Source: an uncultured Erysipelotrichia bacterium (GTDB lineage Bacteria; Bacillota_I; Bacilli_A; CAYWJS01). From it: DNA of 64,000 bases. Position 1 is the stretch's first letter. Each line of letters begins with the position of its first letter. The stretch is taken from the NCBI GenBank assembly GCA_964458855.1, contig CAYWJS010000001.1, positions 170,927 through 234,926 on the forward strand. Direction: 5' to 3'. Below are positions 10,793-64,000 of this stretch, piece after piece. The position numbers and the translations under genes are program-made. The notes below the pieces were generated by a model that searched no databases, had not been told where the DNA came from, and saw nothing but the letters and a program-made list of their open reading frames with translations.

Positions 10793-10967
10793 AATAAAAA
10801 CACCTCCCGAATTTTTGATTAAACTATTTTCATTATCTGACATTTTTTTTGAAAATTCAATGAGATTTTTAAATAATGTCAAAATTTATTTTAAATTGAT
10901 TATTAATAACTTTATAAAGATTTGGATATTGGCATAAAATAAGGTATGAAAGGAGGGCTTTTGCAAT

Positions 10968-27231: not shown

Positions 27232-27348
27232 CATATTTCTTTCATTGACTTATTCATGAAATTTTGTTATTATTATAGAATGTTGGAGTATCTTTTCTAA
27301 AAAGTTGTGCTAAAATTAAATATAAATTTCTTTTTAGGGGTGAAAAAT

Positions 27349-30300: not shown

Positions 30301-31071
30301 GTTATTTCAGTTGTTTTACCAGAAGAAGATATGCCATTTTTAGCAGATGGTACACCAGTTGATATTTGTTTAAACCCTCAAGGAGTTCCAAGCCGGATGA
30401 ATATAGGGCAAGTATTAGAGTTGCACCTAGGTATGGCTGGCCGAAAATTAGGTGTTAAGTTTGCAAGCCCTGTATTTGATGGCGCAGAACCAAAAGAAGT
30501 TTTTGAACTTTTAGAAAAAGCAGGAATTGATAAAGATGGTAAAACTGTTCTTTATGATGGACTAACTGGAAAACCATTTGAAAACAGAATTGCTGTTGGT
30601 GTTATGTATATGCTGAAACTTGTTCACATGGTTGATGATAAGATTCATGCTCGTTCAACGGGAAATTATGCCCTAGTTACACAACAACCTCTTGGTGGTA
30701 AAGCTCAATTTGGTGGACAACGTTTTGGTGAGATGGAAGTTTGGGCTCTTGAGGCCTATGGTGTAGCACATACATTGCAAGAATTATTAACATTAAAATC
30801 TGATGATGTTATTGGTCGTGTTAAGTTATTTGAGGCATTAGTTCGTGGTAAAGAACTAAATCGTCCAGGTGTTCCTGAATCATTTAGAGTGTTAATCAAA
30901 GAACTTCAAGCATTAGCACTTGATGTAAATCTATATACTGAAGATGGAAAAGTAGATTTCAAAAAGGTTGAAGAAATGGAGCATGCTGAAGAAGACAATT
31001 TTGAAACAGAAGATATAGATATTGTAAACATTGATGAGTTACAAGATGTAGAAGAAAATGAAGAAAATTAA
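27349..31071 (+). CDS. rpoB: DNA-directed RNA polymerase beta subunit
   Basis: GTG 27349 follows AGGGGTG (track start 27307). Conserved beta motifs throughout. It carries a lineage-specific repeat insertion (about nt 28160-28640) and an acidic tail. Confidence 0.95.
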
Positions 31072-31086
31072 AAAGGGGGTTACTTA

Positions 31087-34000: not shown

Positions 34001-34707
34001 CAGTAATTAGTGAAATAGAAGGTATAATAACTAATATTAGTAGCAAAAAAGGACGTTATGAAATTGAGGTTTCTAATGACCTAGAAAAAATTTCATATAT
34101 TTCACCTTATGATGCAAAATTAGCAGTTAAAAAAGGTGATAAGGTAGTACCTGGACAAAAATTAACAGAAGGCTCAATTAGTCCAAAAGAATTACTGGCT
34201 GCCACAAGTGTGTTAAAAGTTCAAGAATATATTATTAAAGAAATTCAAAAAGTATATCGTAGTCAAGGTGTTGATATTCTTGATAAACACATTGAAATTA
34301 TGGTTCGAAGAATGCTTTCAAGAATAAGGGTTATAGATGCCGGTTCAACAAATATGTTGCCAGGTTCTTTAGTGAGCGTTTATGAATTTACAGAACGAAA
34401 TAAGGAAACCCTAGAAAAAGGAGGGCAACCTGCAATTGGACGACCAGTTATTCTAGGTATTACTAAAGCATCACTTGAAACAGATTCATTCTTATCAGCT
34501 GCTTCATTCCAAGAAACAACAAGAGTATTAACAGATGCAGCAGTTAAAGGTAAGATTGATAATTTAATTGGATTAAAAGAAAACGTTATTTTAGGTAAAA
34601 TTATACCAGCGGGTACTGGCTCTGAATTATATCAAAATGTAGGATATAGGCTAGTAAATCCACAAGGTCAAACTGAAAGTGAAAACATAAAAGAAATTGT
34701 TGACTAA
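31087..34707 (+). CDS. rpoC: DNA-directed RNA polymerase beta' subunit
   Basis: Zn-finger CxCGKYK..C.RCG and the NADFDGD catalytic motif. Confidence 0.95.
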
Positions 34708-46194: not shown

Positions 46195-47127
46195 TTATGG
46201 CTTATTTTCATATGCATACGGATCATATTTGGGCTCAAAATAAGCTTTCTTTACATTGTAAGAATTTTTTTGAATTAAGATTTCTAAAGATAGAGGATCA
46301 ACATTAAAATGGTTATTATTTTTTAATAAAATTGCAAACTTATTGATATTTTTATCTAATTGTTTTTTTAGAGAGTTATAACTTACTGTGTTACGTTTAG
46401 TTTGAATAATATTTTTTTGTTTTGCAAAAAAGTAATTAATTAATTCATTTTTAACAGTACTTTTAGCATTTTCGTTTTTATATTTTTTATACTTATCTGC
46501 ATTACCAACAAGCTTAAAGAAAAAAAAGTCAGAATTTATTAGTGCTGAAAGCTCGGCACGAACACCATCTAAATTTGCGTCAAAATAGTATGATATTAGT
46601 TTTTTGGGTTCAATAATTTGACTTAAGGCTTCTATTGTAAATGTTTCAAAAGAGTTGCTATCATTAAGATTTTTCCCTTTCAATTTTTTTGTTAAAAACT
46701 TAATCATTCCCTCATTAAGTGCTATTCCAATGTCTTTAATAATACTTTCTTTATTTTTTGATTCACAATAAAATCCAGAAAACAAAATATCTTTTTCTTT
46801 ATTATAGACAGTGCTTGCCACGCGAATCATTTCTTGAGTTAATTTTTGTTCAAATAATTTTTTGTTATTTTCTTTTATATTTTTATTATAAATAATTGTA
46901 TTATCATAATGTAGGTATTTTACTATTAAAATTCTTTTTTGTTTCCTTTCTAGAAGTATTTCTTCCTTTGTTGCTTCTTTAATTTTTAAATTAGAAAGGT
47001 TATCTTTTAAAAACTTAAAGTTTTGGTCTGGTTGCAACTTTAAAATCATTTTTGAAATGTTTGTTATTAGTGGTTTAAAGTCGCCACTAATATTATCATT
47101 TCTTTCAATGGTTTTTTTGATATTCAT
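46195..47127 (-). CDS. Hypothetical protein (310 aa)
   Basis: AAGGAGAAG RBS before the ATG. No family recognised (contains IALNEGMIKFLTKKL). Confidence 0.65.
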   Translation of the reverse strand: MNIKKTIERNDNISGDFKPLITNISKMILKLQPDQNFKFLKDNLSNLKIKEATKEEILLERKQKRILIVKYLHYDNTIIYNKNIKENNKKLFEQKLTQEMIRVASTVYNKEKDILFSGFYCESKNKESIIKDIGIALNEGMIKFLTKKLKGKNLNDSNSFETFTIEALSQIIEPKKLISYYFDANLDGVRAELSALINSDFFFFKLVGNADKYKKYKNENAKSTVKNELINYFFAKQKNIIQTKRNTVSYNSLKKQLDKNINKFAILLKNNNHFNVDPLSLEILIQKNSYNVKKAYFEPKYDPYAYENKP

Positions 47128-47269
47128 TTTTCTTCTCCTTTATATTTTTAGCGCGTTTAAAACAAAACGGAAAATTCGTCTTATTAAACGCAGCGAAATA
47201 TTTTTTTATTTGATATACTTTTTGCTGCAAGAAAATATTTTGCAGTTTGTTGTATATCTAACGACATTT

Positions 47270-47400
47270 CAGCCGTAGCAGCATCCGCCGATAACTCGAT
47301 CACTGCTATCCTCGTCAATCGTTTCCGATCCAGGCGCTGATTAATAAACTACCCTGACTACCCTCCTTGGTAATTTATTAACTACCGCTATTATATTATA
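47270..47400 (-). promoter_or_regulatory. GC-rich structured element in the 5' leader of 46195..47127 (candidate riboswitch or ncRNA, class unknown)
   Basis: On the minus strand there is a 13-bp helix TTAATAAATTACC/GGTAGTTTATTAA with an AAGGAGGG-containing loop. There is also an ATCG-GAAA-CGAT tetraloop hairpin, nested GCAG/CTGC and TCAGC/GCTGA pairings. GC content is visibly above that of the flanks. Confidence 0.3.
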
Positions 47401-48551: not shown

Positions 48552-49292
<741 letters not shown>

Positions 49293-49311
49293 TCTTTTGA
49301 TTTGGCGAAAA

Positions 49312-49339
49312 TTGACAAATTGTCGTTTTGTGCTACGAT
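49312..49339 (+). promoter_or_regulatory. L1 promoter (diverged copy of the locus promoter cassette)
   Basis: TTGACA-aattgtcgttttgtgc-TACGAT. It shares the TTGTCG..TT.GTGCTA core with the cassettes at 50912 and 53407. Confidence 0.5.
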
Positions 49340-49374
49340 ATTATAAGGTAATGATTATAGGAAGGGGTAGAAGT

Positions 49375-50850
49375 GTGGAATACATAGAAAAAGGACGAAT
49401 AGCACGAATTAGAAGTTTAATTGCTATGAGTGCTATAACAGCAATAATTTTGATTATTTCAACTTATGCGTGGTTTGTTGGTATGCAATCAGTTTATGTT
49501 TCCAATTTTGAAATTGATGTACAAGTGGCAGAAGGACTTTCACTTTCATTGGATGGGGAAAATTGGGATTCAAGGTTGACTTTTTCAGTGGATGATATAG
49601 AAAGATTAGGTTATGCTGGAAGTACTAATAGCAAAGGTGGTGCTGGTTTAATTCCAGTATCAACGGTAGGTGCAATGGATACTCGTGCTTCAAGAATGAT
49701 ATTGTTTGAAAAATCAAGTTTTGCTCCAACACCTGGTGGTTATCGAATAATGGCCAGCCGGGTTAAAAATTATTATGATGAAGAAGAAATTTTAGCCCCA
49801 GAACAAGATGGTTATGTAGTTTTTGATTTGTTTATTAGAAACTTATCAGGTACTGAGTACTATGTAAATAATGATCCAAGAAATGAAGAAGCAATTTATT
49901 TAACAACTGATTCAAAAGTGGTTGTTGAAACATCTGGTGGTATTCCTGATACTGGTATTGAAAACTCAGTGAGAATAGCATTTGCACAAATTGGACGTGT
50001 TAAAGCTGACACGGTCCCTTCAATAGTCGCAGGTATTACTTGTAATCCTGATCCTGCTACAGGTGAACCAACTGTTGTAGGTGCTGTAACAGGAATTTGT
50101 CGAAAAGCTCAAATTTGGGAACCAAATGATACAGAGCATAACGCAAATGCAATTAGTTATTATAAAACTTCTTGTCGAAGAAGAATTGCTGGTGGATTTG
50201 GTGCTTCGTCGTATTCAAGTGCTGAGTGTTCAGATATTGTTGGAACCGTTCCTACATTTGCAATTCACAGAGAACTTTCATTTACTGATGAAGTAGATCT
50301 TTATGATGGATATACTGATCCAGAAGATTCAGATAACTTTATATATAATGGTTTTAGCAATGGGGTTTTAGAACCATTTGATTACTTTACTGATTCAGAA
50401 AAAATATTAAAAGGAGTTGAGCGTCCAGCATTTATGACGCTTGCACCTAATAGTATTACTAAAGTAAGAGTTTATATTTATATTGAAGGTCAAGATATTG
50501 ATAATTATAACTTTGCTCAAATCGGAAAAAGAATTGCTGTTAATTTTGGATTCACGAAAGAAAGACTTACTCAAGATGATATTGAGTATGAAGGTCCTGA
50601 TTTAGCCCCGGTTATTAACTTACTCGGCGACAATCCTTTAACAGTTATAGCAGGAGAAAAATATGAGGAGCCAGGTTATAGAGCACTTGATGATTTTGAT
50701 GGGGATATAACACATTTGGTTGAAATAGATTATGGTGAGTTTAATCCAGAATCACCAAGCTTAGGTAATTACACAATAACATATACTGTTCAGGATAAAT
50801 CCGAAAATGTAACTTTGGTAACAAGACAAATATATGTAGTTTCTAATTAA
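49375..50850 (+). CDS. L1: secreted paralog, SipW-type signal anchor (..ISTYA|WF) plus conserved core plus C-terminal DUF5011 Ig-like domain
   Basis: GTG 49375 lies 7-8 nt after AGGAAGGGG. Track start 49297 would lie inside the promoter. The N-terminus aligns with L3 and L4. The C-terminus PVINLLGDNPLTV..GEKYEEPGYRALDDFDGDIT....GNYTITYTVQDKSENV is DUF5011-like. Confidence 0.8.
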   Translation: MEYIEKGRIARIRSLIAMSAITAIILIISTYAWFVGMQSVYVSNFEIDVQVAEGLSLSLDGENWDSRLTFSVDDIERLGYAGSTNSKGGAGLIPVSTVGAMDTRASRMILFEKSSFAPTPGGYRIMASRVKNYYDEEEILAPEQDGYVVFDLFIRNLSGTEYYVNNDPRNEEAIYLTTDSKVVVETSGGIPDTGIENSVRIAFAQIGRVKADTVPSIVAGITCNPDPATGEPTVVGAVTGICRKAQIWEPNDTEHNANAISYYKTSCRRRIAGGFGASSYSSAECSDIVGTVPTFAIHRELSFTDEVDLYDGYTDPEDSDNFIYNGFSNGVLEPFDYFTDSEKILKGVERPAFMTLAPNSITKVRVYIYIEGQDIDNYNFAQIGKRIAVNFGFTKERLTQDDIEYEGPDLAPVINLLGDNPLTVIAGEKYEEPGYRALDDFDGDITHLVEIDYGEFNPESPSLGNYTITYTVQDKSENVTLVTRQIYVVSN

Positions 50851-50879
50851 GAGTAATCAATAGATTACTCTTTTTTTAT
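50851..50879 (+). terminator. Terminator after L1
   Basis: AGAGTAATC-aata-GATTACTCT followed by ttttttatttt. Confidence 0.75.
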
Positions 50880-50911
50880 TTTTCGCATTTTATTGTTTAA
50901 AAATTAAATTA

Positions 50912-50956
50912 TATTGACCATTTTGTCGATTCGTGCTAATATATAAGTGTATAATT
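50912..50956 (+). repeat. 45-nt promoter cassette, copy 1 (repeated at 53407..53451 with 1 mismatch)
   Basis: tATTGACCATTTTGTCGATTCGTGCTAATATATA(a/g)GTGTATAATT read in both places. Confidence 0.85.
50914..50942 (+). promoter_or_regulatory. L2-L3 promoter (extended -10)
   Basis: TTGACC, 17-nt spacer ending in TGc, then TAATAT. Confidence 0.6.
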
Positions 50957-50975
50957 AAAGAGGTAGAGATAAGAA

Positions 50976-51674
50976 ATGAGTGACAAAATTTTTTTAAAAG
51001 CTAGCAGAGTAAAACAACGAAAAAAAATAATGAAAATTGCCAGGTTAATAGCGCTTATTCTTGCTTTGCTCTTGCTTATCTCTTACATAGTTATTCGTAT
51101 TATTTATGGAAGTGGAACTTTTACGATTCGGTTGGATCGAAAGTTATATTATGATAGAGGTCTTATAATTTACGATGATCCAAACTATATGGTTTTTAGA
51201 TCCGAATTACATGCAGAACCAGTTGATTTTTTAGATAATATTTCTTATAAATGGTTACCAACCGATCTTCATGAACATGAAGGTGGTTCACATAATGGGG
51301 ATAATTATATAGCATATACTTTTTATTTAACCAATACGGGAGAATATCCAGCAAATTATTGGTCAGAAATTACTATTGATTATGTGATGAAAGAAGTTGA
51401 TGAGGCAGTAAGGGTAAGGGTCTATAAGAATGGAGAATATAAAACTTATGCGAAAATTGGAAAAAACGGAAGACCTGAACCAGAAACTGTTCCTTTTGTA
51501 TCAGATAGAATAATTACAACAGAGTTTGTTGAAAGGTTTCAACCGGAGGAAACAAATAAATACACTATAGTTATATGGTTAGAGGGAACTGACCCAGAAT
51601 GTACAGATAACATTTTGGGTGGAGAAATAAAACTGTCAATGAGTTTTAATGCAGAAATATTAGATGAAAATTAA
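50976..51674 (+). CDS. L2: membrane-anchored mini-paralog of the L1/L3/L4 core (no YAWF site, no DUF5011)
   Basis: AGAGGTAGAG RBS and one TM. It shares YIAYTFYLTNTGEY and TIVIWLEGTDPECTDNILGGEIKLSMSF with the FDLFIKNxSGxEYY and VYIWIEGQDIDNY...VxFGF motifs of the larger paralogs. Confidence 0.75.
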   Translation: MSDKIFLKASRVKQRKKIMKIARLIALILALLLLISYIVIRIIYGSGTFTIRLDRKLYYDRGLIIYDDPNYMVFRSELHAEPVDFLDNISYKWLPTDLHEHEGGSHNGDNYIAYTFYLTNTGEYPANYWSEITIDYVMKEVDEAVRVRVYKNGEYKTYAKIGKNGRPEPETVPFVSDRIITTEFVERFQPEETNKYTIVIWLEGTDPECTDNILGGEIKLSMSFNAEILDEN

Positions 51675-51683
51675 AGGAGAGAT

Positions 51684-53324
51684 ATGGTTATGTCAAAATT
51701 GAAAAACAGGCGACTAAGTCAAATTAGAAATTTAATTGCAATGAGTGCTTTAAGTGCTTTAGTTTTAATTGTTTCAGCTTATGCATGGTTTATTGGTATG
51801 CAATCTGTTCATGTAACAAACTTTGAAATTGAAATTGCAGTTGCAGAAGAATTATTTCTTTCATTAGATGGTGAAAATTGGACAACGAATTTAAGTATTA
51901 GTAGAGAAGATGTTGAAGGAACAGAACAAGGGAAACCTTACCCAAATCATACAAATAGTTGGGGAGGTGCTGGTCTTATCCCAATGTCATCAGTTGGGGA
52001 AATAGATTTACAAGCATCGCGATTAAAGTTGTATGAAAAGGCAAGTTTTACAGCAAGTCCAGGTGGTTGGAGAATACTAACAAGTCGTGTTCAAAATTAT
52101 TATGATGAAGAAGAAGTTTTAGCCTCAGAACAAGATGGATATGTTGCATTTGATCTATTTATTAAAAACATGTCAGGTAGTGAATACTATACAGAAAGCG
52201 ATGTAAGAAATGAAGAGGCAATTTATTTAACAATTGATTCAGAAGTAACAGTTGCTTCAGCTGGAGTTGCTGGAGCAGGTATTGAAAATTCAGTGAGAGT
52301 AGCATTTGCGCAAATTGGACGTGTTAAAGCTGATTCAACTGATTATGCAACAATTCAAGGTATAACTTGCAATCTTGATGAAGAAGGAAACCCTTCTTAT
52401 TCAGAAAGTAATAAAGTAACAGGAATTTGCCGTAAGGCTGTAATTTGGGAACCAAACGATACTAGTCATACAGCGGAAGCGATAAGTTGGTATAATTTAA
52501 CATGTCGCCCAAGAATAGGCTTTGATGTAACTCTTGATACCTCTTTTAATAAAGAAGGAAAATGTAATCCAGTAGTTGATGGCTTAGCGTATCCAACATA
52601 TGTTGTAAGAGATGTAATTAATGTAGAAGATAATGCTGATGCTTATGATGGGGAAGCTTATAATACTTGGGATGTTGCTAAAACAACTGTACAAGTACCA
52701 GATCCAGAAAACCCTGGAGAGACTATAACTAAAAATATAACACCAAAATTAGAAGAGACTAAATATTTCACGGATACAGATAAGTTAAAACGCGGAACTG
52801 AGCGTCCAGCATTTATGACGCTTGCACCAAATAGTATTACAAAGGTGAGAGTATATATTTGGATTGAAGGTCAAGATATTGATAACTATGACTTTGCATC
52901 AATTGGAAAAAGAATTTCTGTTAAATTTGGATTTACAAAACAACAACTTACTGAAGGAGACATTGGTTATGAAGGACCAAATCCAAATGAAGGATATGGA
53001 CCAGGTGCAGAAGATAAGACTCCACCAATTATTGTTTTAAATCCTGGCTCAGAAGGTAATGATGATATGATGATTCCACTTGGTAGTGAATTTAATGATC
53101 CTGGTGTAAAAGAAGCATATGATGTTACAGGTCATGATGCGGAAGGAAATCCTATTAAACTAAACTATAATGTAGAAGGCGATGACAGCGACGTTAAAAT
53201 ATCAGGAGTTGTAAATACTAACTATCCAGGAACATACCGAATTACTTATGAAGTAAGGGATGCAAAAGGAAACTTAGCTAGAATCATGAGAAGAGTAACA
53301 GTATATGACCCAAATCAAGAGTAA
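51684..53324 (+). CDS. L3: secreted paralog (..VSAYA|WF), core plus DUF5011
   Basis: AAGGAGAG RBS. Strong similarity to L1 and L4 at both ends, with a variable Cys-bounded middle region. Confidence 0.85.
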   Translation: MVMSKLKNRRLSQIRNLIAMSALSALVLIVSAYAWFIGMQSVHVTNFEIEIAVAEELFLSLDGENWTTNLSISREDVEGTEQGKPYPNHTNSWGGAGLIPMSSVGEIDLQASRLKLYEKASFTASPGGWRILTSRVQNYYDEEEVLASEQDGYVAFDLFIKNMSGSEYYTESDVRNEEAIYLTIDSEVTVASAGVAGAGIENSVRVAFAQIGRVKADSTDYATIQGITCNLDEEGNPSYSESNKVTGICRKAVIWEPNDTSHTAEAISWYNLTCRPRIGFDVTLDTSFNKEGKCNPVVDGLAYPTYVVRDVINVEDNADAYDGEAYNTWDVAKTTVQVPDPENPGETITKNITPKLEETKYFTDTDKLKRGTERPAFMTLAPNSITKVRVYIWIEGQDIDNYDFASIGKRISVKFGFTKQQLTEGDIGYEGPNPNEGYGPGAEDKTPPIIVLNPGSEGNDDMMIPLGSEFNDPGVKEAYDVTGHDAEGNPIKLNYNVEGDDSDVKISGVVNTNYPGTYRITYEVRDAKGNLARIMRRVTVYDPNQE

Positions 53325-53334
53325 TAAATTTTAA

Positions 53335-53368
53335 AAGGAGCAATTAGTTGATTGCTCCTTTTTTATTT
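53335..53368 (+). terminator. Terminator after L3
   Basis: AAGGAGCAAT-tagttg-ATTGCTCCTT followed by ttttatttt. Confidence 0.8.
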
Positions 53369-53406
53369 TATAAAAATCAACAATATTAGATTAAACAATA
53401 AAATTT

Positions 53407-53451
53407 TATTGACCATTTTGTCGATTCGTGCTAATATATAGGTGTATAATT
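53407..53451 (+). repeat. 45-nt promoter cassette, copy 2
   Basis: Identical to 50912..50956 except for one base (g at 53441 vs a at 50946). Confidence 0.85.
53409..53437 (+). promoter_or_regulatory. L4 promoter (extended -10)
   Basis: TTGACC, 17-nt spacer ending in TGc, then TAATAT. Confidence 0.6.
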
Positions 53452-53515
53452 GTTATGCTATTTATACATTTAAAATTAGTTAAAATTGTAAGAAGGGTAA
53501 TAAAGGAGAGTGCAT

Positions 53516-55063
53516 ATGCAAGGTAGAAAAAAAAGACTAGATAGTCGAGTTAGAAATTTAATTGGGATTTGTGCTTTAAGTGTTATTGTTTTAATTGTTT
53601 CATCTTATGCGTGGTTTATTGGTATGCAATCTGTTCATGTATCAAGTTTTGAAATTGAAATTGCTGCCACAAAAGCACTAGAATTGTCCTTAGATGGGAA
53701 AACATGGTCAAATACTGTAACGATTAATGAAGCAAAATTACCAGAGATTGATGCTCAGTATCCAGATAATACCAATAGTTGGGGTGGATCTGGATTAAAA
53801 CCAATCTCAACAGTTGGAAAGATAGATTTGGATGCTTCTCGTCTAATATTATATGAAAAAGCAAGTTTTTCACCAGTACCTGGTGGATTTAAAATTCTAG
53901 CGAGTCGAGTTAATAATCATTATAATGAAGAAGAAACAACTTTATCTCCAGAACAAAATGGTTATGTAGTGTTTGATTTATTTATTAAGAATCATTCAGG
54001 AAATGAATATTACAAAGAAGTAGATTATAGAAATGAAGAAGATATTTATTTAACAATTGATTCAACTGTAGAAGTAGCAACTGCAGGAGGAATTGCTGAT
54101 ACAGGTATTGAAAACTCAATAAGAGTAGCGTTTGCGCAAATTGGACGTGTTATTGGGACAACAAAAGCAGAGGATGCTGCTGACATAATTCAAGGAATTA
54201 CTTGCGCAAATACTAATGAAGTTTCAGGAATTTGCCATACTCGTGATGCTGTAATTTGGGAACCAAATGATAAGGCACATAATAGAAACGCAGTTAATTT
54301 TTATGAAACGACTTGTTTGTTAAGAGATAATCAAGGTACAGAACCAAATGATGTTTCTTCACCAGATTCTTATACTACATCTTGCCCAGAATTAGTATAC
54401 GAAGCAGAAGATCCAGATAATATACCTTATTACCCAACATATTCAATTGCTGATGTAATTGGTGCAGAAGATAATGTTAATGCTTATGATGGGGAAGAGT
54501 ATAATGGATATACAAAATCTGTTATTAGTGAAAGTAATCCAAATGGAAAATTGATGAAATTTGATTACTTTACTGACACAGAAAAAAATTATACAGGAAC
54601 TGATCGCCCATCATTTATGAGACTAGCACCAAATAGTATTACTAAAGTTAGAATTTATGTTTATATAGAAGGCCAAGATATTGATTGCTATAGTTGGTCA
54701 CAAATTGGAAAGAGAATTTCTGTTCGCTTTGGGTTCACAAAAGAAAGACTTACTGAAGAAGATATTGAATATGAAGGACCAAATACAGATGAACATGATA
54801 ATACACCACCAGTTATTACTTTAAATGGTTCTAACCTAATTGAGCTTCCATTAGGAACGCCATATGTTGAATACGGAGCAACTGCACAAGATGATTATAC
54901 TCAATATATAGATCCAAATGATATTGAAATAGAATACCCAGACGGTTTTGATCCAGAAAATCTATCTGTTGGTGAATATGAAATAACTTATAAAGCTAGA
55001 GATAGAAAAGGAAATGTAGGCGAAGCAACAAGAATTGTTAGGGTATATGACCCAGAGGAATAA
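53516..55063 (+). CDS. L4: secreted paralog (..VSSYA|WF), core plus DUF5011
   Basis: ATG 53516 lies 7 nt after AAGGAG (track start GTG 53510). The C-terminus PPVITLNGSNLIELPLGTPYVEYGATAQDDYT....GEYEITYKARDRKGNV is DUF5011-like. Confidence 0.85.
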   Translation: MQGRKKRLDSRVRNLIGICALSVIVLIVSSYAWFIGMQSVHVSSFEIEIAATKALELSLDGKTWSNTVTINEAKLPEIDAQYPDNTNSWGGSGLKPISTVGKIDLDASRLILYEKASFSPVPGGFKILASRVNNHYNEEETTLSPEQNGYVVFDLFIKNHSGNEYYKEVDYRNEEDIYLTIDSTVEVATAGGIADTGIENSIRVAFAQIGRVIGTTKAEDAADIIQGITCANTNEVSGICHTRDAVIWEPNDKAHNRNAVNFYETTCLLRDNQGTEPNDVSSPDSYTTSCPELVYEAEDPDNIPYYPTYSIADVIGAEDNVNAYDGEEYNGYTKSVISESNPNGKLMKFDYFTDTEKNYTGTDRPSFMRLAPNSITKVRIYVYIEGQDIDCYSWSQIGKRISVRFGFTKERLTEEDIEYEGPNTDEHDNTPPVITLNGSNLIELPLGTPYVEYGATAQDDYTQYIDPNDIEIEYPDGFDPENLSVGEYEITYKARDRKGNVGEATRIVRVYDPEE

Positions 55064-55130
55064 GAATAAAATAAGAAGTTTAAATAATACTGACTAGAGG
55101 TTATGTTAGTTATTATTTAAGTTTAATATA

Positions 55131-55164
55131 AAGAGTAATCAACAGTTGGTTACTCTTTATTTTT
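55131..55164 (+). terminator. Terminator/attenuator hairpin between L4 and L5
   Basis: AAGAGTAATC-aacagtt-GGTTACTCTT followed by tatttt. It resembles the L1 terminator and ends only about 6 nt before the L5 RBS. Confidence 0.6.
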
Positions 55165-55179
55165 AAAAGAGGTGACTTG

Positions 55180-56283
55180 ATGCCTAAAAAAAATAAAATA
55201 AAAATAAATAAAACTATTAAAGATAAAAAAGCAATAAAGAAAAAAAATAAAAAAGGAAAGAGACTTGCTTTAATGTTAATAGTTACCTTTTTTGTCGGAA
55301 TATTATTAATAATTTCTACATATGCATGGTTTTCGGTATCGCTAAATGTTAAAGTTAAGAGGTTTGATGTTGTTGTATCTAGTGATAGTGGTTTGTTTAT
55401 TTCATTAGATGGTATTAATTTTTCTGATTCAATAGAATTATCAGTAAATAGTGTTATAACAAATTTAAAAAATAGATACCCAACTCATACAAATCAGTGG
55501 GCTTTAGCAGGGCTTTGGCCTGTATCTTCTAATGGAATAAACCATAGTAACCAAGATAAATTTCAAGTTTTTGCTGCATCCTTCGCTCGTAAATCAGCAC
55601 ACACAAAAGAAAGATATATGTTTACAAGACTTCTTAGTGAAAATCAATCTGGTGCAGCAAGCCCTTTTATAGCATTTGACATATTCTTAAAAAATGTTAC
55701 TGGCTCACCATTTAGTGATAATTTATATTTAGATGAAGGAACTTCCGTTACTTTTTCAGATGATACAGAACCTGAGATTATCGAAACTATGGAAGATGTA
55801 TTAAATTCAATTAGATTTGGCTTTTTAAAAATTGGTAGTGTTCCTTTAAATTCAGATATTAAAACAATTCAGGGAATAAAGTGTAATAATCAATGTGAAT
55901 TTGTTATTTATGAACCAAATAGTGCAAAACACTCAAATGAAACAATTGAACGGATAAAAGAGCGATATGATTATGATTTAGTAGATGGTGAGTATTTACC
56001 AACTTACGGTGTTATAAAAGCTGGTTCGAGATTAGAATTTTCAAGGATTATTCCAACAGAAGATGGTTATAAAATTGATTATGATCCTGAGTATTTTGCT
56101 CTTCAAAGAACAATTACAAGCTTTGAAAATAGTATTTTTAAAATTCCTAATGCAATTACAAAAATGAGAATATATGTTTGGATTGAAGGACAAGATTTTG
56201 ACAGTTTGGAAACTAATTCAGATGGTGCATCTGTAAATTTAGTAATTAATTTTGTAAAAGATTTAGCTAGTTATGAACAATAG
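55180..56283 (+). CDS. L5: shorter secreted paralog (..ISTYA|WF), core only, no DUF5011
   Basis: Shares YAWF, LFISLDGINF, FIAFDIFLKNVTGS, SIRFGFLKIG, GIKCNNQCEFVIYEPN and ITKMRIYVWIEGQDFDS with L1, L3 and L4. Confidence 0.8.
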   Translation: MPKKNKIKINKTIKDKKAIKKKNKKGKRLALMLIVTFFVGILLIISTYAWFSVSLNVKVKRFDVVVSSDSGLFISLDGINFSDSIELSVNSVITNLKNRYPTHTNQWALAGLWPVSSNGINHSNQDKFQVFAASFARKSAHTKERYMFTRLLSENQSGAASPFIAFDIFLKNVTGSPFSDNLYLDEGTSVTFSDDTEPEIIETMEDVLNSIRFGFLKIGSVPLNSDIKTIQGIKCNNQCEFVIYEPNSAKHSNETIERIKERYDYDLVDGEYLPTYGVIKAGSRLEFSRIIPTEDGYKIDYDPEYFALQRTITSFENSIFKIPNAITKMRIYVWIEGQDFDSLETNSDGASVNLVINFVKDLASYEQ

Positions 56284-58155: not shown

Positions 58156-60033
58156 ATGTTAAAAAACAATAAATTATCACTATTAAAAATTATTAGTTTA
58201 ATTATAATATTAGGCTTTATTTTAGTAGTGCCCTTAGTTTCAAAAGAATATAGTAATTTAAAAGAGACAGGATTTAAAAATGATACTTTAAAAGTATTAA
58301 ATTTAACAAATTCAATAGTTACTATTAGTATTGATGATAAAACTTATACAACTTTTAAAGAAGAATTGGATTATGTATATATTGATCGTCCAAGAGAAAT
58401 TAGTATTCAAACAAGTGACGAAATTATAATTAAATATTATGTATCAAAAGAAGTTTTAACAATTGAAGAGTTAGATTTATTAGATGAAGAAGAGTGGGTG
58501 CCGTATGTATCTGAGTTTCTAATTGATGAAATAGGAACTTACATTTTTTATGTTAAAGCAATAAATAGTGAAGAAGAGGTAAGTTATTATAACACGGATT
58601 ATATTGTTTATGATGGATATATAAATCAAAGTTTAAAAATTGGAAGAGGTTCTAATTACGAAGGTTTTTTACCATATATTACTGGTAAGTCTACAGTAAC
58701 TTTAAACTTTAAGTATTTAAGTACTAATGCTGAGATAAGCGGAAATCATAATCTTATGAGCAATATTTTATTTCCGAAAGGAACAAAAATAACATTAATT
58801 GATAATGTTAAACAAAAAGTTTATACATATGAAATAACTACTGATGAAGATGTTTACAATTACCATGAAAGTTGTGCTTCGAGTGATTTAGGGTGCGAAA
58901 AAATTGCAACTTATTCATTTTCATTATTTAACGAAGTGGGTGCAATAGATAAGTCATTTGTGGAAAGTTCATATTTTGAAAATGGTGAAGTTTATGAAAA
59001 TTTTACTATTGTTTTAGATTTTGCGAAAACAAATATAACAAGTAATTTTTTAGATGTTAAGGTCTTTTTAGAATTAAAAGATTTATCCGGAAATAGTGTT
59101 CGTCCAACTTTATATGAGACAATTAATAAATTTCAAATATATGCGCGCGTTAATGATAAAGATACTGGTGCAAATTTAGACTTAACTACTGATTATTCAG
59201 GTACACCAATTAAATATAATACAGATTCAACAACTGAAATTACTTTAACTAGCAAAATAAATTATAAATTTTTGGGTGAAATTCCAATAATTGATACAAC
59301 ATATGAAAATAAAAATATTGGTTTTGCAATTAAATTGGTAGATGATAGTGGAAAGATTGTAAATAGAAATAATTTAAAAAATATTTCGTTTTTAGTAGAT
59401 GGCAAAGCTTATTATCCAGAAGAAGATCATATTGTAAGAATTAATTTGGAAAAAGGAATTGCTGATATAAGTAAAAAACTTACAATTATTACACACAAAA
59501 CTCAAAGTTATTTAGAACCTGGAACCTATTATTTAAAAATTAATGCTTATGTATCTAAAGGAAAATATTTTTCTAGTTTAAGCAGTAGTGAAATTAGTAT
59601 TCCTGTTAATGTTGTTCAAGATAAAACAAAAATACCATATGCTTTTAATGTTGTTATTAATAATGAGGATTATGTAATTGCGAAAAGCGAAGAAGAAAGA
59701 GAAATAATGTTTAATATTTTACAAACTAGTTCTTTTGAAAACCCTAATATTCGTATTGCTTTATATGAAAGGCAAGAAAAAGAAGAAGGACCAAGTTATG
59801 AAATTGTTGATTTAAATAATTTTATAACTGATGAACTAGAAGAAGCAGAAGAAAATGTTTATTATGCAGTGGAAAAAGCAGTTAATTATATAAGTCCGGA
59901 TTATTTATATAATGAATTTAAGCTTAATTTAATACCTGCAAACTTTAATTATACTAGTTATAAATATGTATTTATGTTGTATGATGGTGAAGAAAAAATC
60001 GCTACAATTGAAAAATATTTTCTAGTTAAGTAG
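58156..60033 (+). CDS. L8: 625-aa N-terminally anchored, beta-rich extracellular protein
   Basis: AGAGGG RBS. Signal anchor LLKIISLIIILGFILVVPLV, with the remainder predicted outside the cell. No family recognised. Confidence 0.75.
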   Translation: MLKNNKLSLLKIISLIIILGFILVVPLVSKEYSNLKETGFKNDTLKVLNLTNSIVTISIDDKTYTTFKEELDYVYIDRPREISIQTSDEIIIKYYVSKEVLTIEELDLLDEEEWVPYVSEFLIDEIGTYIFYVKAINSEEEVSYYNTDYIVYDGYINQSLKIGRGSNYEGFLPYITGKSTVTLNFKYLSTNAEISGNHNLMSNILFPKGTKITLIDNVKQKVYTYEITTDEDVYNYHESCASSDLGCEKIATYSFSLFNEVGAIDKSFVESSYFENGEVYENFTIVLDFAKTNITSNFLDVKVFLELKDLSGNSVRPTLYETINKFQIYARVNDKDTGANLDLTTDYSGTPIKYNTDSTTEITLTSKINYKFLGEIPIIDTTYENKNIGFAIKLVDDSGKIVNRNNLKNISFLVDGKAYYPEEDHIVRINLEKGIADISKKLTIITHKTQSYLEPGTYYLKINAYVSKGKYFSSLSSSEISIPVNVVQDKTKIPYAFNVVINNEDYVIAKSEEEREIMFNILQTSSFENPNIRIALYERQEKEEGPSYEIVDLNNFITDELEEAEENVYYAVEKAVNYISPDYLYNEFKLNLIPANFNYTSYKYVFMLYDGEEKIATIEKYFLVK

Positions 60034-60041
60034 GTGTTAAA

Positions 60042-60602
60042 ATGATAAATAAAATAAATAAAAAAGTTTTAATTATTGCTGGTTTAGTAATTATACTTGG
60101 ACTTTTTTCTGGCGTAACATATTCAATTTTTCATTCACGAGTAAAGATGAAATCTCATGATCAAAAAATTGCAAAATTTATATTTAATGTAGAGCATTTA
60201 GATGATTTAGAAATTCCTTTAGTGGATATCATACCAGGTGAGGAACAAGAATATTTGTTTTCAGTTACTAATAATTCAGAGGAAAAAATTAGTGATGTTA
60301 CACTAGAGTATCAAATAACAATAAAAACATATCATTTTCTTCCTTTAATAATTGAACTTTTTAAGATAATTGAAGAAGAAACAGAAGAATTAATCTTAAC
60401 ATGTGATGATAGTTTTGAACGTTCTACACAAAATGAATTAGTATGTGAAGTTCCTCTTCAAGAAATGGTTCATTCAGAGGAAGTGGTTGATAATTATAAA
60501 TTGAGAATAGAGTTTCCAGAAGATAAAAATGAAGAAGTTTACGCTAGTTTAGTTGATTTTATTAATTTAGAAATAAGAAGCTGGCAAAAAATTAGTAAAT
60601 AA
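60042..60602 (+). CDS. L9: small secreted protein with SipW-type site (..GVTYS|IF), TasA/camelysin-like strand motif
   Basis: AGGTG RBS. IIPGEEQEYLFSVTNNSEEKISDVTLEYQITI resembles the PGD...F.V.N.G strand of the TasA family. Confidence 0.7.
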   Translation: MINKINKKVLIIAGLVIILGLFSGVTYSIFHSRVKMKSHDQKIAKFIFNVEHLDDLEIPLVDIIPGEEQEYLFSVTNNSEEKISDVTLEYQITIKTYHFLPLIIELFKIIEEETEELILTCDDSFERSTQNELVCEVPLQEMVHSEEVVDNYKLRIEFPEDKNEEVYASLVDFINLEIRSWQKISK

Positions 60603-60616
60603 CAGAGGTGTTATAA

Positions 60617-61510
60617 ATGAAAAAGAGGAGTTTAATTTTAATAATATTACTAATAATGAGTTCATTGCTACTTATTTATGGGATATCTTCAGCAAGGTAT
60701 ATTTCTACTTCCGTATGGGATTATTATTTAAGGGCGAAGGAATTTTATTTTACAAGTGATTTTTTAGATGTAACACCTGTTAAAACGGTTAATACATTAT
60801 GGGATGGTAAAAAAGTAACCTTTAACATTAAAAATAATTTAAATGTAATTGCAATAACTGATTATGATATTGAATATATAGTAACTTGTACAATAAAAGG
60901 AGATATGGCATCACATGCTCAGTGTAAATTAAATGGGACAACTGAAAACACTTTTGAAAGTATTTTAGAAAATTCAAAACATTGTGTAAACAGAAAAGAA
61001 ACAGGTGTTGATGTAAGTGAATTTACTGAAATAGAATGTATTGAAGCAGGTTATGATTGGGAAAATAAAATCTCTATGGAAGAGCTGTATTTTGAAATTA
61101 TTCCAAATAATCCAAACGATGAACTGAATAAAATAGAGGTAAATATTACAGTTGAAAGTACTAAACCTTATAAGAAAACTTTAACAGGGGATTTTGTATT
61201 AGAAAAACCCAACTTAAAAGAAGAAGTTAAAATGGTTCTTAAAAGTTATGATGATTACGAGGAGTTAATTGTAACAAATTCATATAATCAAAGAAAGTGC
61301 ATAAAAATATCTTGGGATTCTAGCAAATTAAGGCTTGATGCGAGTCCAAATAATTTTAGTTCTTATCTCGCGGATACAAATGGTTTTATCAAAGAAATTA
61401 AATTCAATATAAATGCAAAGAGTAACTTAAACTTAATGTTTTACCGTGTGTATTTTAATTTAGAAGTTGGTATTGATGATTTTATACTAACTGAAAGTAG
61501 CGGTTGTTAA
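60617..61510 (+). CDS. L10: secreted protein with a signal peptide ending ..YGISSA|RY
   Basis: GAGGTG RBS and one N-terminal hydrophobic helix. Contains the KKVTFNIKNNLN strand motif. Confidence 0.7.
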   Translation: MKKRSLILIILLIMSSLLLIYGISSARYISTSVWDYYLRAKEFYFTSDFLDVTPVKTVNTLWDGKKVTFNIKNNLNVIAITDYDIEYIVTCTIKGDMASHAQCKLNGTTENTFESILENSKHCVNRKETGVDVSEFTEIECIEAGYDWENKISMEELYFEIIPNNPNDELNKIEVNITVESTKPYKKTLTGDFVLEKPNLKEEVKMVLKSYDDYEELIVTNSYNQRKCIKISWDSSKLRLDASPNNFSSYLADTNGFIKEIKFNINAKSNLNLMFYRVYFNLEVGIDDFILTESSGC

Positions 61511-61581: not shown

Positions 61582-62133
61582 ATGAAAGTATTGGGGATTA
61601 TTAAGAAAGTTGTAAAGGTTATTATTTTAACTGTTTTTTTTGTTTATGCTATATTTATGAGTATATTATTGTTAAATATAAATAAATATGGTGTTACACA
61701 AATTGATAATATTTCCTTTGTTATTTTAAGAGAAGAGCTATCCTCAGATAAGTATAAAAAAGGCGATTTATTATTAATTGAATCAAAGAAAATTAATAGA
61801 ATTAACGAAGGCGATGAAATATTTGTTTATGTTGTAGATAGCACAGGAATCCCAAGTATTGATTTAGGTATTATAGCGGGGAAAAATATAGAGAAAAATT
61901 ATATTACTTTTAAAAATGGTTCTGCTTATGATATGCAGTTTGTAATTGGAGAGACAGTAAAAGTTTATAATGGTATCGGATTGTATCTTTCATTTTTACA
62001 ATCAACGTGGGGATTTTTATTTACTGTTTTAATTCCTGTTTTTCTAATCTTTATTTACCAAGTTTATGCTCTAATTATAGAAATTAAATTTGGTGATGAA
62101 GAAGAAATGAAAGAAAAGATAGAAGAAATATAA
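61582..62133 (+). CDS. L11: SipW-like (S26B-like) two-TM protein lacking any histidine; probable pseudo-peptidase
   Basis: Same N-TM / beta core / C-TM layout as L12, with aligned blocks KKGDLLLIES~NPGDLVIVKL and ITFKNGSAYD~YVTKGDANNAYD. GSM is replaced and there is no His in 183 aa. Confidence 0.6.
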   Translation: MKVLGIIKKVVKVIILTVFFVYAIFMSILLLNINKYGVTQIDNISFVILREELSSDKYKKGDLLLIESKKINRINEGDEIFVYVVDSTGIPSIDLGIIAGKNIEKNYITFKNGSAYDMQFVIGETVKVYNGIGLYLSFLQSTWGFLFTVLIPVFLIFIYQVYALIIEIKFGDEEEMKEKIEEI

Positions 62134-62287: not shown

Positions 62288-64000
62288 ATGAAGTCACAGA
62301 TAAGTTTGTTAGAAAGATTTGTTAATTTTGTTTTAAATATATTAATTTTTATTTTTGGCGTAATTATTCTAATTTTGGTTTATGCCAATTTTCAAACAAA
62401 AATTCTTGGTAATAATTATAATGACTTTTTTGGTTATTCTTTCTTTGAAGTACAAACAGGAAGTATGGCGGATACTATCAATCCAGGAGACTTAGTAATA
62501 GTAAAACTTACTGATAATATAAAGTTAAATGATGTTGTAACTTTTAGACTTGGAAGCGACTATATTACTCATCGGGTTATGCAAATACTTCCAGATGGAA
62601 GTTATGTAACTAAAGGGGATGCAAATAATGCTTATGATGAACCAGTAAATAAAAACCAAATTATTGGTAAAGTAGTAAAAATTATTCCTGGTGTTGGAAT
62701 CATAAGAAAAACAATTCTTGAACCAAGCGTTATAATTACGATTTTAATTACAATTTGGTTATTTACTTTAGCGCTTAAAGATGAAAAAGAAGGAAAAGCA
62801 TCAGAAATTAAAAAAGAAAGAAAATATGTTTCATGGGATACAATTTGGGAAAAAACAAGTGCCTTTTTTGTCTATTTAGGAAATGGTATAGTATTTCTTA
62901 CTAAAAGAATTCTTGCTTTCCTTATAAAAGTAAAAGAGATTATTATAAAATTTATTGTAAAGATTAGGGAAGTAATTAAATTCTTATACTTAAAATTAAA
63001 AGAAGCATTGAGACTTCTTGGAGAAAAAATAGTTATTCTTTATTCGAAAATTAAAGATGAACTAATTCAGTTATTTAAGAAACTTTCAAAATTATTTATT
63101 AAACTAAAAGAATTTATAAAGAAAAAAGCAAAATTATTATGGCAAATTTTAAAAGTGTGGACAGATAAATTTATTAAGAAAATTTCTGCTTTCTTAGTTA
63201 TAGCAAAAGAAACATTAAAAAAGGTATTTAAGACTTTAATTTTAAAACTAAAAGTAGGATTTAAAGTATTTTTTGAATTCTTAAAAAAGATTTTTAAGAA
63301 GGTAAGTGATGCGATGGTTTTAGTTTTTAATAATGTTCGCAAAAAAGTAAAAAAAATAGTTGAAGATTTAAAAAATAAATTTAAAAAAGAAGAAGTGATT
63401 ACTACTAGTGATGAAAAAAAAGAAGAGGTAATAGGTGAAACTTTAGACGAAGAACTAACAGAAAGCATAAAACCTGAAGAAACCATTGAGTTAGATACGA
63501 AGATAACAATTGATTCGATTGAGATTGAAAAAACATACTTAGAAATTGCTGAAAATGAGTTAAAGAAGAGTCAAAAAGAGAAAGAAAAAGAAAAAAAGAA
63601 AAAGGTAGTTAAACCTAAACCAAAGAAAAAAGAACAAAAACCAAAAAGTGAGGATTTAACTGAACTAGAATTAAAAATTTTAAAGAAAAATAAGAAAGCA
63701 AGTGTTATAGAAGCTTTTGAATTAATAAAAGAAGAAGAATTAACAAAAATAATGAAAATAATACTTAGAAGAGACAAAACTTTTATTAAGATGTCAACGG
63801 TGGAAAAGAAGTTTTTAAAGACATATATTGATGCAAGATATTATAATTTTCATGTTTTTGAAGCAGTTTATAGTAGTAATAATTATATTACCAAAATAAA
63901 AAGAACATTAAAAAAACTTGCTTCTAAACTAGTTGAAGATTATAAAGGAAGTAATCCAAAATATGGTGATATTGTAAATAAATATTTAAAACTTTTTGTC
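62288..64000 (+). CDS. sipW: L12: archaeal/ER-type signal peptidase I (SipW-like, S26B) fused to a >400-aa Lys-rich amphipathic extension; 3' end outside window
   Basis: This ORF is not in the track because it has no stop within the window; I read it codon by codon from ATG 62288. It has an N-terminal TM, VQTGSMADTINPGDLVIV (Ser codon 62462-62464), ITHRV (His codon 62570-62572), TKGDANNAYDEP and a second TM. The frame then stays open to nt 64000. Confidence 0.8.
   Translation, partial: MKSQISLLERFVNFVLNILIFIFGVIILILVYANFQTKILGNNYNDFFGYSFFEVQTGSMADTINPGDLVIVKLTDNIKLNDVVTFRLGSDYITHRVMQILPDGSYVTKGDANNAYDEPVNKNQIIGKVVKIIPGVGIIRKTILEPSVIITILITIWLFTLALKDEKEGKASEIKKERKYVSWDTIWEKTSAFFVYLGNGIVFLTKRILAFLIKVKEIIIKFIVKIREVIKFLYLKLKEALRLLGEKIVILYSKIKDELIQLFKKLSKLFIKLKEFIKKKAKLLWQILKVWTDKFIKKISAFLVIAKETLKKVFKTLILKLKVGFKVFFEFLKKIFKKVSDAMVLVFNNVRKKVKKIVEDLKNKFKKEEVITTSDEKKEEVIGETLDEELTESIKPEETIELDTKITIDSIEIEKTYLEIAENELKKSQKEKEKEKKKKVVKPKPKKKEQKPKSEDLTELELKILKKNKKASVIEAFELIKEEELTKIMKIILRRDKTFIKMSTVEKKFLKTYIDARYYNFHVFEAVYSSNNYITKIKRTLKKLASKLVEDYKGSNPKYGDIVNKYLKLFV

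Follow-up and report, generated by a model that had tools for sequence, protein, structure and literature searches.

A predicted SipW-like signal peptidase fused to a conserved cytoplasmic module beside McrB-like and McrC-like genes in uncultured Bacilli

Signal peptidases of type I are as a rule membrane enzymes reduced to the minimum; to our knowledge, a second function facing the cytoplasm has been hinted at only for Bacillus subtilis SipW, through its short C-terminal tail. What, then, is encoded by a gene in which a SipW-type peptidase is followed, in the same frame, by hundreds of further residues? Such a gene lies at the 3' end of the 64,000-nucleotide (nt) stretch analysed here (the window), which belongs to contig CAYWJS010000001.1 of an uncultured Erysipelotrichia bacterium. 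An earlier reading of the bare sequence (the original prediction) had seen in the extension above all a long Lys-rich amphipathic helix. We favour a different reading, to which we assign a probability of about 0.55: the gene would encode the active signal-peptidase subunit of a cluster of the type named CoCoPALM, combining a SipW/TasA-like fibre operon with a membrane-anchored McrB-like AAA+ GTPase and an McrC-like partner, and the peptidase would be fused in this clade to the cluster's own cytoplasmic adaptor module.

Reading frame, peptidase domain and distribution of the fusion

Positions 62288-64000 of the window (+ strand) form a single open frame of 571 codons that is unbroken up to the window end. 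The original prediction, which had described a peptidase with at least 400 further amino acids (aa) still open at that point, was thus borne out. These 1713 nt are the 5' part of the gene (aa 1-571 of 827), the remainder lying past the window end. Six assemblies of the same species (L001-L006) were retrieved via contigs encoding the neighbouring 183-aa protein, and extension into them, as had been proposed, gave a complete open reading frame (ORF) of 827 aa (P0001; coding sequence at L002 8830-11313), which is also complete in L003 and L004. When the window was aligned with L002-L006, which come from different samples, zero gaps were observed in the coding sequence, over spans of 586-2484 nt depending on the coverage of each source. 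In L001, an ENA contig of ~1x coverage, the same region (10707-13083) contained 77 gap openings in 2484 nt and 9 mismatches; as a consequence, gene callers returned neither the fusion nor the McrB-like gene in one piece from this contig, but in fragments. This discordance is an indel-error artefact and, given the gap-free agreement of the window with five independent assemblies, the reading frame is real; no frameshift or stop separating the peptidase from the downstream region was found in them.

The N-terminal part was assigned to the ER/archaeal-type (ER, endoplasmic reticulum) signal peptidases I (S26B; SipW/Sec11-like) and is predicted to be active. It matched TIGR02228 over aa 15-157 (70.6 bits against a curated cut-off of 51.85, E 1.3e-19) as well as the Pfam family Peptidase_S24, and its best sequence matches in the PDB were human SEC11C and SEC11A. 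Ser59 (in GSM), His95 (in THR) and both Asp111 and Asp117 (in GDANNAYD) were invariant in an alignment of 53 homologues, so that a Ser/His (plus Asp) catalytic set is present and not a Ser/Lys dyad. The SipW equivalog model (NCBIfam NF046067), whose 189 positions agree with the ~190 aa quoted in the original prediction for stand-alone SipW, was matched below threshold, with 52.2 bits against a cut-off of 190. The predicted SipW type hence stood as far as an ER-type, SipW/Sec11-like peptidase with intact Ser, His and Asp is concerned; by the NCBI equivalog cut-off, the protein would be SipW-like but no SipW orthologue. Two predicted transmembrane (TM) helices enclose the domain (Table 1), TM1 lying in a hydropathy window of aa 4-41 (mean Kyte-Doolittle value up to 3.05; AlphaFold2 (AF2) helix 6-39) and TM2 in one of aa 141-166 (AF2 helix 146-166). 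The loop after TM2 is strongly Lys-rich, which makes an N-in/C-in topology reasonable; the cytoplasmic placement of the extension that had been proposed is thus plausible from the hydropathy, the modelled helices and this loop.

The fusion turned out to be no oddity of one genome, since the same architecture was found in hundreds of homologues. A word-indexed search returned 347 homologues of the fusion, nearly all of the 120 listed being 650-830 aa long. From the 128 stretches encoding a relative in GTDB species-representative genomes, 80 loci were kept, and a full-length fused match was present in 78 of these, the remaining two being cut by contig ends. The search for the same fusion in related genomes, suggested by the original prediction, was thereby answered in its favour. 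The sources were all metagenome-assembled genomes, and apart from some bins whose labels are evidently wrong they are assigned to Bacilli, Mollicutes, Tenericutes or Bacillota. Judged from these sequences, the fusion is a real, widespread and undescribed variant of the SipW-type peptidase in uncultured low-GC Bacilli.

An exhaustive profile search with the C-terminal module alone returned 376 clusters at 50% identity and revealed three architectures, namely the fusion to the active peptidase, a stand-alone protein of ~320-360 aa and a fusion to an inactive peptidase paralogue. In P0218, for example, the N-terminus was 34% identical to the product of window 61582-62133 (E 3e-28) and the C-terminus 31% identical to P0001 479-817 (E 7e-27). 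Besides P0218, the inactive paralogue bears the module in P0213 and P0245, all from other lineages. Where the module stands alone (L088-L090), its gene immediately precedes that of the McrB-like protein, with the active peptidase encoded two or three genes further up. The module is thus found free, fused to an active peptidase or fused to a dead one, a Rosetta-stone pattern. In contrast to the Lys-rich helix, which had been taken for the defining extension, this module of ~370 aa is the conserved fusion partner of the peptidase.

Table 1. Features of the fusion gene and of the cluster genes upstream of it (window positions)
Feature	Position	Strand	Basis
Genes of the upstream cluster half: four paralogues of 517, 546, 517 and 368 aa, a relative of 232 aa, an ORF of 50 aa and a cytoplasmic helical protein of 540 aa	49297..58062	+	
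Two secreted proteins with N-terminal signal anchors: 625 aa (58156-60033) and 297 aa (60617-61510)	58156..61510	+	conserved, flanking the 186-aa gene
Secreted protein, 186 aa, TasA/camelysin-like N-terminus (…SGVTYS↓IFHS…)	60042..60602	+	Peptidase_M73, sub-threshold
Pseudo-peptidase, 183 aa, lacking Ser, His and Asp; immediately upstream of the fusion	61582..62133	+	alignment
TM helix 1 (~aa 12-34), signal-anchor of the peptidase	62321..62389	+	hydropathy, AF2
Extracytoplasmic ER/archaeal-type signal peptidase I domain	62417..62707	+	TIGR02228, Peptidase_S24 and SEC11 matches
Catalytic codons	Ser59 62462-62464; His95 62570-62572; Asp111 62618-62620; Asp117 62636-62638	+	
TM helix 2 (~aa 146-166), predicted to lead the chain back to the cytoplasm, followed by KDEKEGKASEIKKERK	62723..62785	+	hydropathy, AF2
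Long Lys-rich amphipathic helical region (aa 184-369)	62837..63394	+	period 3.64, net ~+36, class-A-like charges
Acidic disordered segment (aa 370-409), one degenerate 'ELDKTSxYRVIPVD' copy	63395..63514	+	pLDDT <50; motif in relatives
Conserved 'LEIAENE' helix (aa 410-435)	63515..63592	+	AF2 helix 410-435
Lys/Pro-rich linker KEKEKEKKKKVVKPKPKKKEQKPK (aa 430-453)	63575..63646	+	pLDDT <50
Start of the conserved cytoplasmic module (first ~110 residues in the window)	63662..64000	+	AF2, Foldseek, profile search

The C-terminal module and the Lys-rich helix

An acidic and Lys-rich linker leading to a further domain had been foreseen, and behind the linker at aa 430-453 we indeed found the module (aa ~459-827, ~370 aa in full). 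It consists of a six-helix bundle (~473-634) and a beta/alpha domain (~638-825), and was modelled with good confidence when taken alone (AF2 pLDDT 84, pTM 0.84). Searches of Pfam, NCBIfam and PDB sequences with it gave zero matches. In two Foldseek searches against the PDB, the sole neighbours of probability 1.0 were EAL domains (Bd1971, FimX, MucR, MorA, BifA and YahA), with E values of 1e-4 to 4e-2, target-normalised TM-scores of ~0.45-0.54 and root-mean-square deviations of 6-9 A; weaker matches were other TIM-type barrels. At the sequence level, Pfam EAL (PF00563) was detected in 0 of 16 members at E<=10, hhalign against PdeH gave a probability of 0.2%, and hhalign against an alignment of PdeH, PdeL, PdeC and PdeK gave a co-linear but not significant 0.75% (P 0.075). 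The module showed no recognisable counterparts of the catalytic and metal residues of EAL domains (EALxR Glu, Asn, ExxE, DD and Lys); opposite them in the co-linear alignment, the fused family reads ELIHN, Y/P, L.T, V-L/F and F. The beta/alpha domain would thus be EAL-like in fold only, and degenerate if homologous at all. The most conserved block of the module, aa 659-685 (HN.xFSKVYSDYIIDKTYxEGI(I/V)AEDK), overlaps the least confident part of the model, a coincidence that would fit a ligand- or partner-binding loop.

Could the EAL-like domain then be a degenerate nucleotide receptor of the FimX/LapD type, in which cyclic di-GMP or another nucleotide switches signal-peptide processing or fibre assembly, with or without the McrB-like motor? 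We consider this unlikely as the chief function, although it is partly compatible with the adaptor reading. EAL domains being the only neighbours of probability 1.0 speaks for it, all the more as they include FimX, a degenerate cyclic di-GMP receptor controlling type IV pilus biogenesis; moreover, the 659-685 block aligns in the co-linear hhalign result where EAL domains bear their EALxR and FIPxAE substrate-binding elements, and some stand-alone relatives keep 'GYKFAIILDD' and 'VNFP', resembling the EAL DDFG and N motifs. Against this, TM-scores were just ~0.5, the metal and catalytic residues could not be recognised, no Pfam EAL match was obtained in any of the 16 members and hhalign against E. 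coli EAL domains stayed below 1%. FimX structures (4ag0, TM-score 0.51; also 4f48 and 4fou) are among the best structural neighbours of the beta/alpha domain, and FimX with PilZ and PilB, a dead EAL domain linking a cytoplasmic signal to a pilus motor NTPase (nucleoside triphosphatase), offers a conceptual parallel to the module. In contrast to FimX, to which it has no detectable sequence homology, the module domain is shorter than an EAL domain, has another kind of helical bundle in front of it and is attached to a signal peptidase.

Between TM2 and the module, the amphipathic K/L/I/F-rich character claimed for aa ~203-367 was confirmed. AF2 models aa 184-369 as three helices (184-277, 282-320 and 325-369) with breaks at 278-281 and 321-324. 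The hydrophobicity spectrum of aa 190-367 showed a single dominant peak at a period of 3.64-3.65 (half-maximum 3.62-3.67), with a power of 288 against a 95th percentile of ~96 in shuffled sequences; 0 of 1000 shuffles reached it, and the Fourier support on which the proposed periodicity depended was thus obtained for hydrophobicity. Power fell to 204 at 3.667, 73 at 3.60 and ~1.5 at 3.50, and the phase was coherent across 159 residues at a period of 3.65, not at 3.60. A heptad coiled coil was rejected, power at a period of 3.5 being absent. With 48 K+R and 12 D+E the region carries a net charge of ~+36, and ~55% of it is hydrophobic. Lys and Arg sit at the polar/apolar boundary, with 0 at the centre of the apolar face (0-45 degrees) and 21 of 45 in the 90-135 degree sector, and Asp and Glu at the centre of the polar face (9 of 12 in 135-180 degrees).

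The predicted recurrence of aromatic residues at ~11-residue spacing fared less uniformly. All six positions were right (W291, F302, F314, F325, F336 and F347), and a six-member chain of 11/12 spacing had P~0.008 under shuffling in a post hoc test, but the aromatic-only Fourier spectrum had no significant peak at ~11. Likewise, the proposed repeat analysis revealed modest self-similarity within the protein (local score 98 against 66+/-11 in shuffles keeping the hydrophobic/polar pattern; z 4.2 at offset 11, with comparable z at other multiples of ~3.65), and Tandem Repeats Finder found no tandem repeat in the DNA beneath.

Helices of this geometry are familiar as 11-mer-repeat class-A amphipathic helices from apolipoproteins, alpha-synuclein and perilipins. 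The helix in the window protein resembles them in an 11/3 period over >150 residues, in its boundary Lys and in acidic residues in the middle of the polar face. In contrast to them, it lacks a clear 11-mer repeat in the protein as well as any repeat in the DNA, its apolar face is far more hydrophobic (I/L/F/V-rich) and it is covalently anchored beside a TM helix of a bacterial membrane enzyme. As a helix of the 11/3 class-A type, it would most likely rest against the anionic inner leaflet, where it may concentrate or orient the complex. Alternatively, the helix could be a protein-protein element, a non-heptad coiled coil or hairpin that oligomerises the peptidase or pairs with coiled coils of the McrB-like or McrC-like proteins instead of binding the membrane. 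Coiled coils characterise CoCoPALM components, 11/3 (hendecad) periodicity is known in coiled coils too, and three modelled helices with short breaks could fold back on each other. We hold this alternative to be rather doubtful, since a helix ~55% hydrophobic and charged +36, with Lys beside the apolar face and Asp/Glu opposite, has the classic lipid-surface arrangement, like-charged helices would repel each other, power is absent at 3.5 and the helix begins ~20-40 residues past a TM helix.

Across the family, an amphipathic helix of at least 18 aa, ~15 residues past TM2, was found in 74% of the fused members. The window protein has 134 amphipathic residues, where the family has 24 in the median and 49 at the 95th percentile, and its Lys-rich helix of ~170 aa is a lineage-specific expansion of a short juxtamembrane amphipathic helix and no feature of the family. 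In one other lineage, an independent Lys-rich amphipathic helix of ~110 aa (period 3.64, net +19) was observed at aa 256-364 of P0125, an 873-aa homologue from outside the window; it sits between two DLDKTS repeats, not directly after TM2.

Most relatives carry 1-4 acidic 'DELDKTSFYRVIPVD' repeats in the middle region. This acidic linear motif, '(D/E)ELDKTS(F/L)YR(V/I)IPVD…', occurs in 1-4 copies between TM2 and the module in P0002, P0006, P0012, P0022 and P0061, and in a single degenerate copy (…ELDTKITIDSIEIEKTY…) at 63473-63538 (+) of the window; it may be a partner-binding short motif. In and next to the 'LEIAENE' helix, V408, D409, E412, T416 and E424 were nearly invariant in the homologue alignment.

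The gene cluster and the proposed machine

The fusion gene is part of a conserved core whose order is 625 aa, 186 aa, 297 aa, the 183-aa pseudo-peptidase, the fusion, 507 aa, 380 aa and a peptidase of ~200 aa. The 507-aa McrB-like gene was present in 78 of the 80 loci and the 380-aa DUF2357 gene in 74; upstream core genes were found in 40-54, the upstream flanks being truncated in many. Since the 10-kb flanks of the loci end inside the cluster, the genes flanking it are uninformative on conservation. In every context examined, the module directly precedes the McrB-like/McrC-like pair.

The 507-aa gene starts ~6-40 nt past the last aligned residue of the fusion. Its product has a TM helix (~aa 55-80), a coiled-coil or heptad-like stretch, a '…SQLGLRPEE' ending (no DivIC/FtsB Pfam match at E<=1) and an AAA+ core. 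Alignment of 50 of these downstream homologues with E. coli McrB by hhalign gave a probability of 96.8% (E 2.6e-10, 188 columns), with Walker A, Walker B and the MNxxDR signature region in register; the signature of the family, GTINNDDS, fits NxD as well as NxxD and is paired by hhalign with MNTADRS. As a separate observation, the AAA+ core (L002 11317-12840, beyond the window) matched positions 299-436 of 724 of the PADLOC defence-candidate profile PDC-M26A (E 3.9e-39). The 380-aa protein matched DUF2357 (PF09823), the N-terminal domain of McrC, with 44-47 bits against a cut-off of 23.3. A nuclease domain was not detected in it and hhalign of its family against E. coli McrC gave nothing; its probable place among McrC-like proteins is taken from the Pfam match. 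The peptidase behind it (197-210 aa) passes TIGR02228 and is the third signal-peptidase-family protein of the cluster, next to the pseudo-peptidase and the fusion. In the three copies inspected (L014 15090-15695, L001 15768-16361 and L090 10858-11490) it keeps Ser and His and has Leu or Ile in place of the first Asp of GDAN.

Bell et al. (eLife 2024, PMC11090510) named CoCoPALM systems within a large clade of McrB-like GTPases, in one paragraph and with the analysis deferred; they branch next to the CoCoNuTs, relatives of McrBC predicted to be anti-phage (PMC11090510). Feature by feature, the present cluster appears to match that description, with an McrB-type AAA+ protein whose N-terminal part has a TM helix and a coiled-coil-like stretch, an McrC homologue carrying DUF2357, and members of the signal peptidase family encoded close by. 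The fusion of peptidase and module, the EAL-like module, its alternative forms and the TasA-like genes are not described in the text of that paper, its supplementary text holds no CoCoPALM details (PMC11090510), and we found no follow-up paper. The novelty claimed for the fusion itself was therefore upheld, no paper describing such a signal peptidase having been found, but the association with McrB/McrC had already been named, though not analysed (CoCoPALM, PMC11090510).

The closest characterised enzyme is SipW of Bacillus subtilis, the dedicated peptidase for TasA and TapA (PMC4551309). SipW has been reported as bifunctional, with adhesion defects once its last 20 residues are lost (Terra et al. 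2012, cited in PMC13566338; PMC4551309). The window protein resembles SipW as a bacterial ER/archaeal-type signal peptidase I with Ser/His chemistry, N- and C-terminal TM helices and a cytoplasmic C-terminal tail, and its gene likewise sits among genes for secreted proteins with TasA-type signal peptides. The tail of SipW, itself ~190 aa long, spans a few dozen residues, whereas that of the window protein comprises ~660 residues with a folded module of ~370 aa; the cluster also encodes the McrB-like/McrC-like pair and two further peptidase paralogues.

Upstream, the pseudo-peptidase was present in 54 of the 80 loci. The 154-nt gap between its gene and the fusion contained no terminator-like site, and promoter-like sites were not above chance. 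A conserved peptidase paralogue lacking the catalytic residues recalls SipA/LepA of Streptococcus pyogenes (PDB 4n31), an inactive signal-peptidase homologue essential for pilus polymerisation, and 4n31 was a structural neighbour of the peptidase fold in Foldseek. SipA/LepA works with sortase-assembled LPXTG pilins; an LPXTG-type C-terminus was not seen in the one protein end inspected (625 aa), and no search was aimed at sortase genes. The 186-aa gene has a conserved position in the cluster. Peptidase_M73 (camelysin/TasA) was the top Pfam family in 6 of 12 members of its family, below the gathering score (best E 7e-4), and comparison of the family with the PDB gave no match, TasA included. 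From these features its product is a candidate fibre subunit and candidate substrate of the peptidase.

Genes of the upstream half were conserved in 40-50 of the 80 loci. The signal peptides of the four paralogues end in 'S-x-Y-A-W-F', expected to be cut as S-x-Y-A↓W-F (the arrow marks the predicted cut), and more generally the N-terminal anchors of the upstream proteins end in …(S/T/A)-Y-A↓W-F or …T-Y-S↓I-F, resembling the cleavage region of TasA. The four large paralogues and the 232-aa relative (49297-56283, +) share the motifs IWEPN and W(I/L)EG(Q/T)D, and three have a C-terminal immunoglobulin (Ig)-like domain. In the PDB, the 'YAWF' paralogues matched with the C-terminal Ig-like domain only, TasA not being among the matches.

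Taken together, we propose that the extracytoplasmic domain with Ser59, His95 and Asp would cleave TasA-like signal peptides ending in (S/T/A)-x-(A/S) with an aromatic residue next, so that the upstream-encoded TasA-like and 'YAWF' proteins would be processed outside the cell. Helical bundle and degenerate EAL-like barrel would be held under the membrane, where the module most likely docks onto, or is regulated by, the McrB-like motor with its TM and coiled-coil anchor. Active peptidase, dead paralogue, module and motor might then form one membrane complex, in which the module would pass a cytoplasmic input (NTP hydrolysis by the motor or a bound nucleotide) to processing and assembly, or the reverse.

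Several points weigh against this proposal. The assignment of substrates draws on the shape of signal peptides and on Peptidase_M73 matches below threshold, and no known family of fibre proteins or pilins is matched by the 'YAWF' paralogues. The proposed docking of the module on the McrB-like motor is deduced solely from adjacency and alternative fusions, and the EAL likeness is structural (TM-score ~0.5, hhalign <1%, no Pfam match). The confidence of the helix model is moderate (pLDDT 55-74), and the helix could be a helical bundle or non-heptad coiled coil instead. Finally, the components of the cluster are known here from sequence alone, and the label 'pilus assembly' attached to CoCoPALM is itself a prediction.

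More tentatively, the fusion might be the hinge of an undescribed envelope machine, in which TasA-like subunits would be assembled or retracted under an McrB-type GTPase and its McrC-like partner, with the peptidase and its dead paralogue coupled to them via the degenerate EAL-like adaptor. If true, Gram-positive bacteria would have a new way of building pili or fibres that is coupled to NTP, and McrBC-type motors would have a job other than restriction. The architecture suggests a coupling of signal-peptide cleavage and fibre assembly to cytoplasmic events. It may be the first architectural clue to the wiring of CoCoPALM, which becomes testable as peptidase or pseudo-peptidase to adaptor to McrB/McrC-like motor, and it provides experimental handles in the EAL-like domain, a candidate degenerate receptor, and in the 11/3 amphipathic helix with its unusual length. 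Since the hosts are abundant uncultured Bacilli of the gut and of anaerobic digesters, a conserved surface-structure locus of ~17 kb would also be of ecological interest.

A different view of the whole locus is that it is an anti-phage conflict system derived from McrBC, the peptidase fusion acting as a membrane sensor or effector and not as an enzyme of fibre assembly. The AAA+ protein is McrB-like, its core matches PDC-M26A (E 4e-39) and CoCoPALM adjoins the CoCoNuTs (Bell et al., PMC11090510). However, the McrC-like protein lacks a detected nuclease domain, no PADLOC match was obtained for any other cluster component scanned, and in the locus of ~17 kb, its order conserved in at least 80 species, genes predominate whose products are secreted, look structural and bear TasA-like signal peptides. 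Conserved order and secreted proteins of this kind would be expected of a surface organelle rather than of a defence island with its patchy distribution, and we regard a role in defence as improbable. An artefact in which a frameshift, mis-assembly or chimeric contig had joined a ~190-aa peptidase to an unrelated gene is refuted: the one source of the same species without a single gene called across the region, L001, is of low coverage, the five other assemblies and the window agree without gaps, and the fused architecture recurs in hundreds of diverged homologues.

Host and remainder of the window

The DNA of the window is chromosomal and has ~25% GC; besides an L10 leader, tRNAs and a glmS ribozyme, it contains two long ORFs (27307-34707) of the size of rpoB and rpoC. 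A wall-less (mollicute) host was rejected, because the window encodes an Amidase_3 protein with five LysM domains and a SleB-like hydrolase, indicating a walled, low-GC firmicute.

Two minor observations concern the genes ahead of the cluster. The glmS ribozyme at 47202-47349 (-) was matched over its full length with 72.8 bits (gathering score 37). The ORF behind it on that strand (46195-47127, -; 310 aa) matches no Pfam family and is clearly not GlmS. At 48552-49260 (+), an intact groES (85 aa) precedes, by 140 nt, an ORF of just 103 aa; this ORF matches positions 394-482 of 490 of the Cpn60 profile, so that only the C-terminal end of groEL is left, immediately before the cluster.

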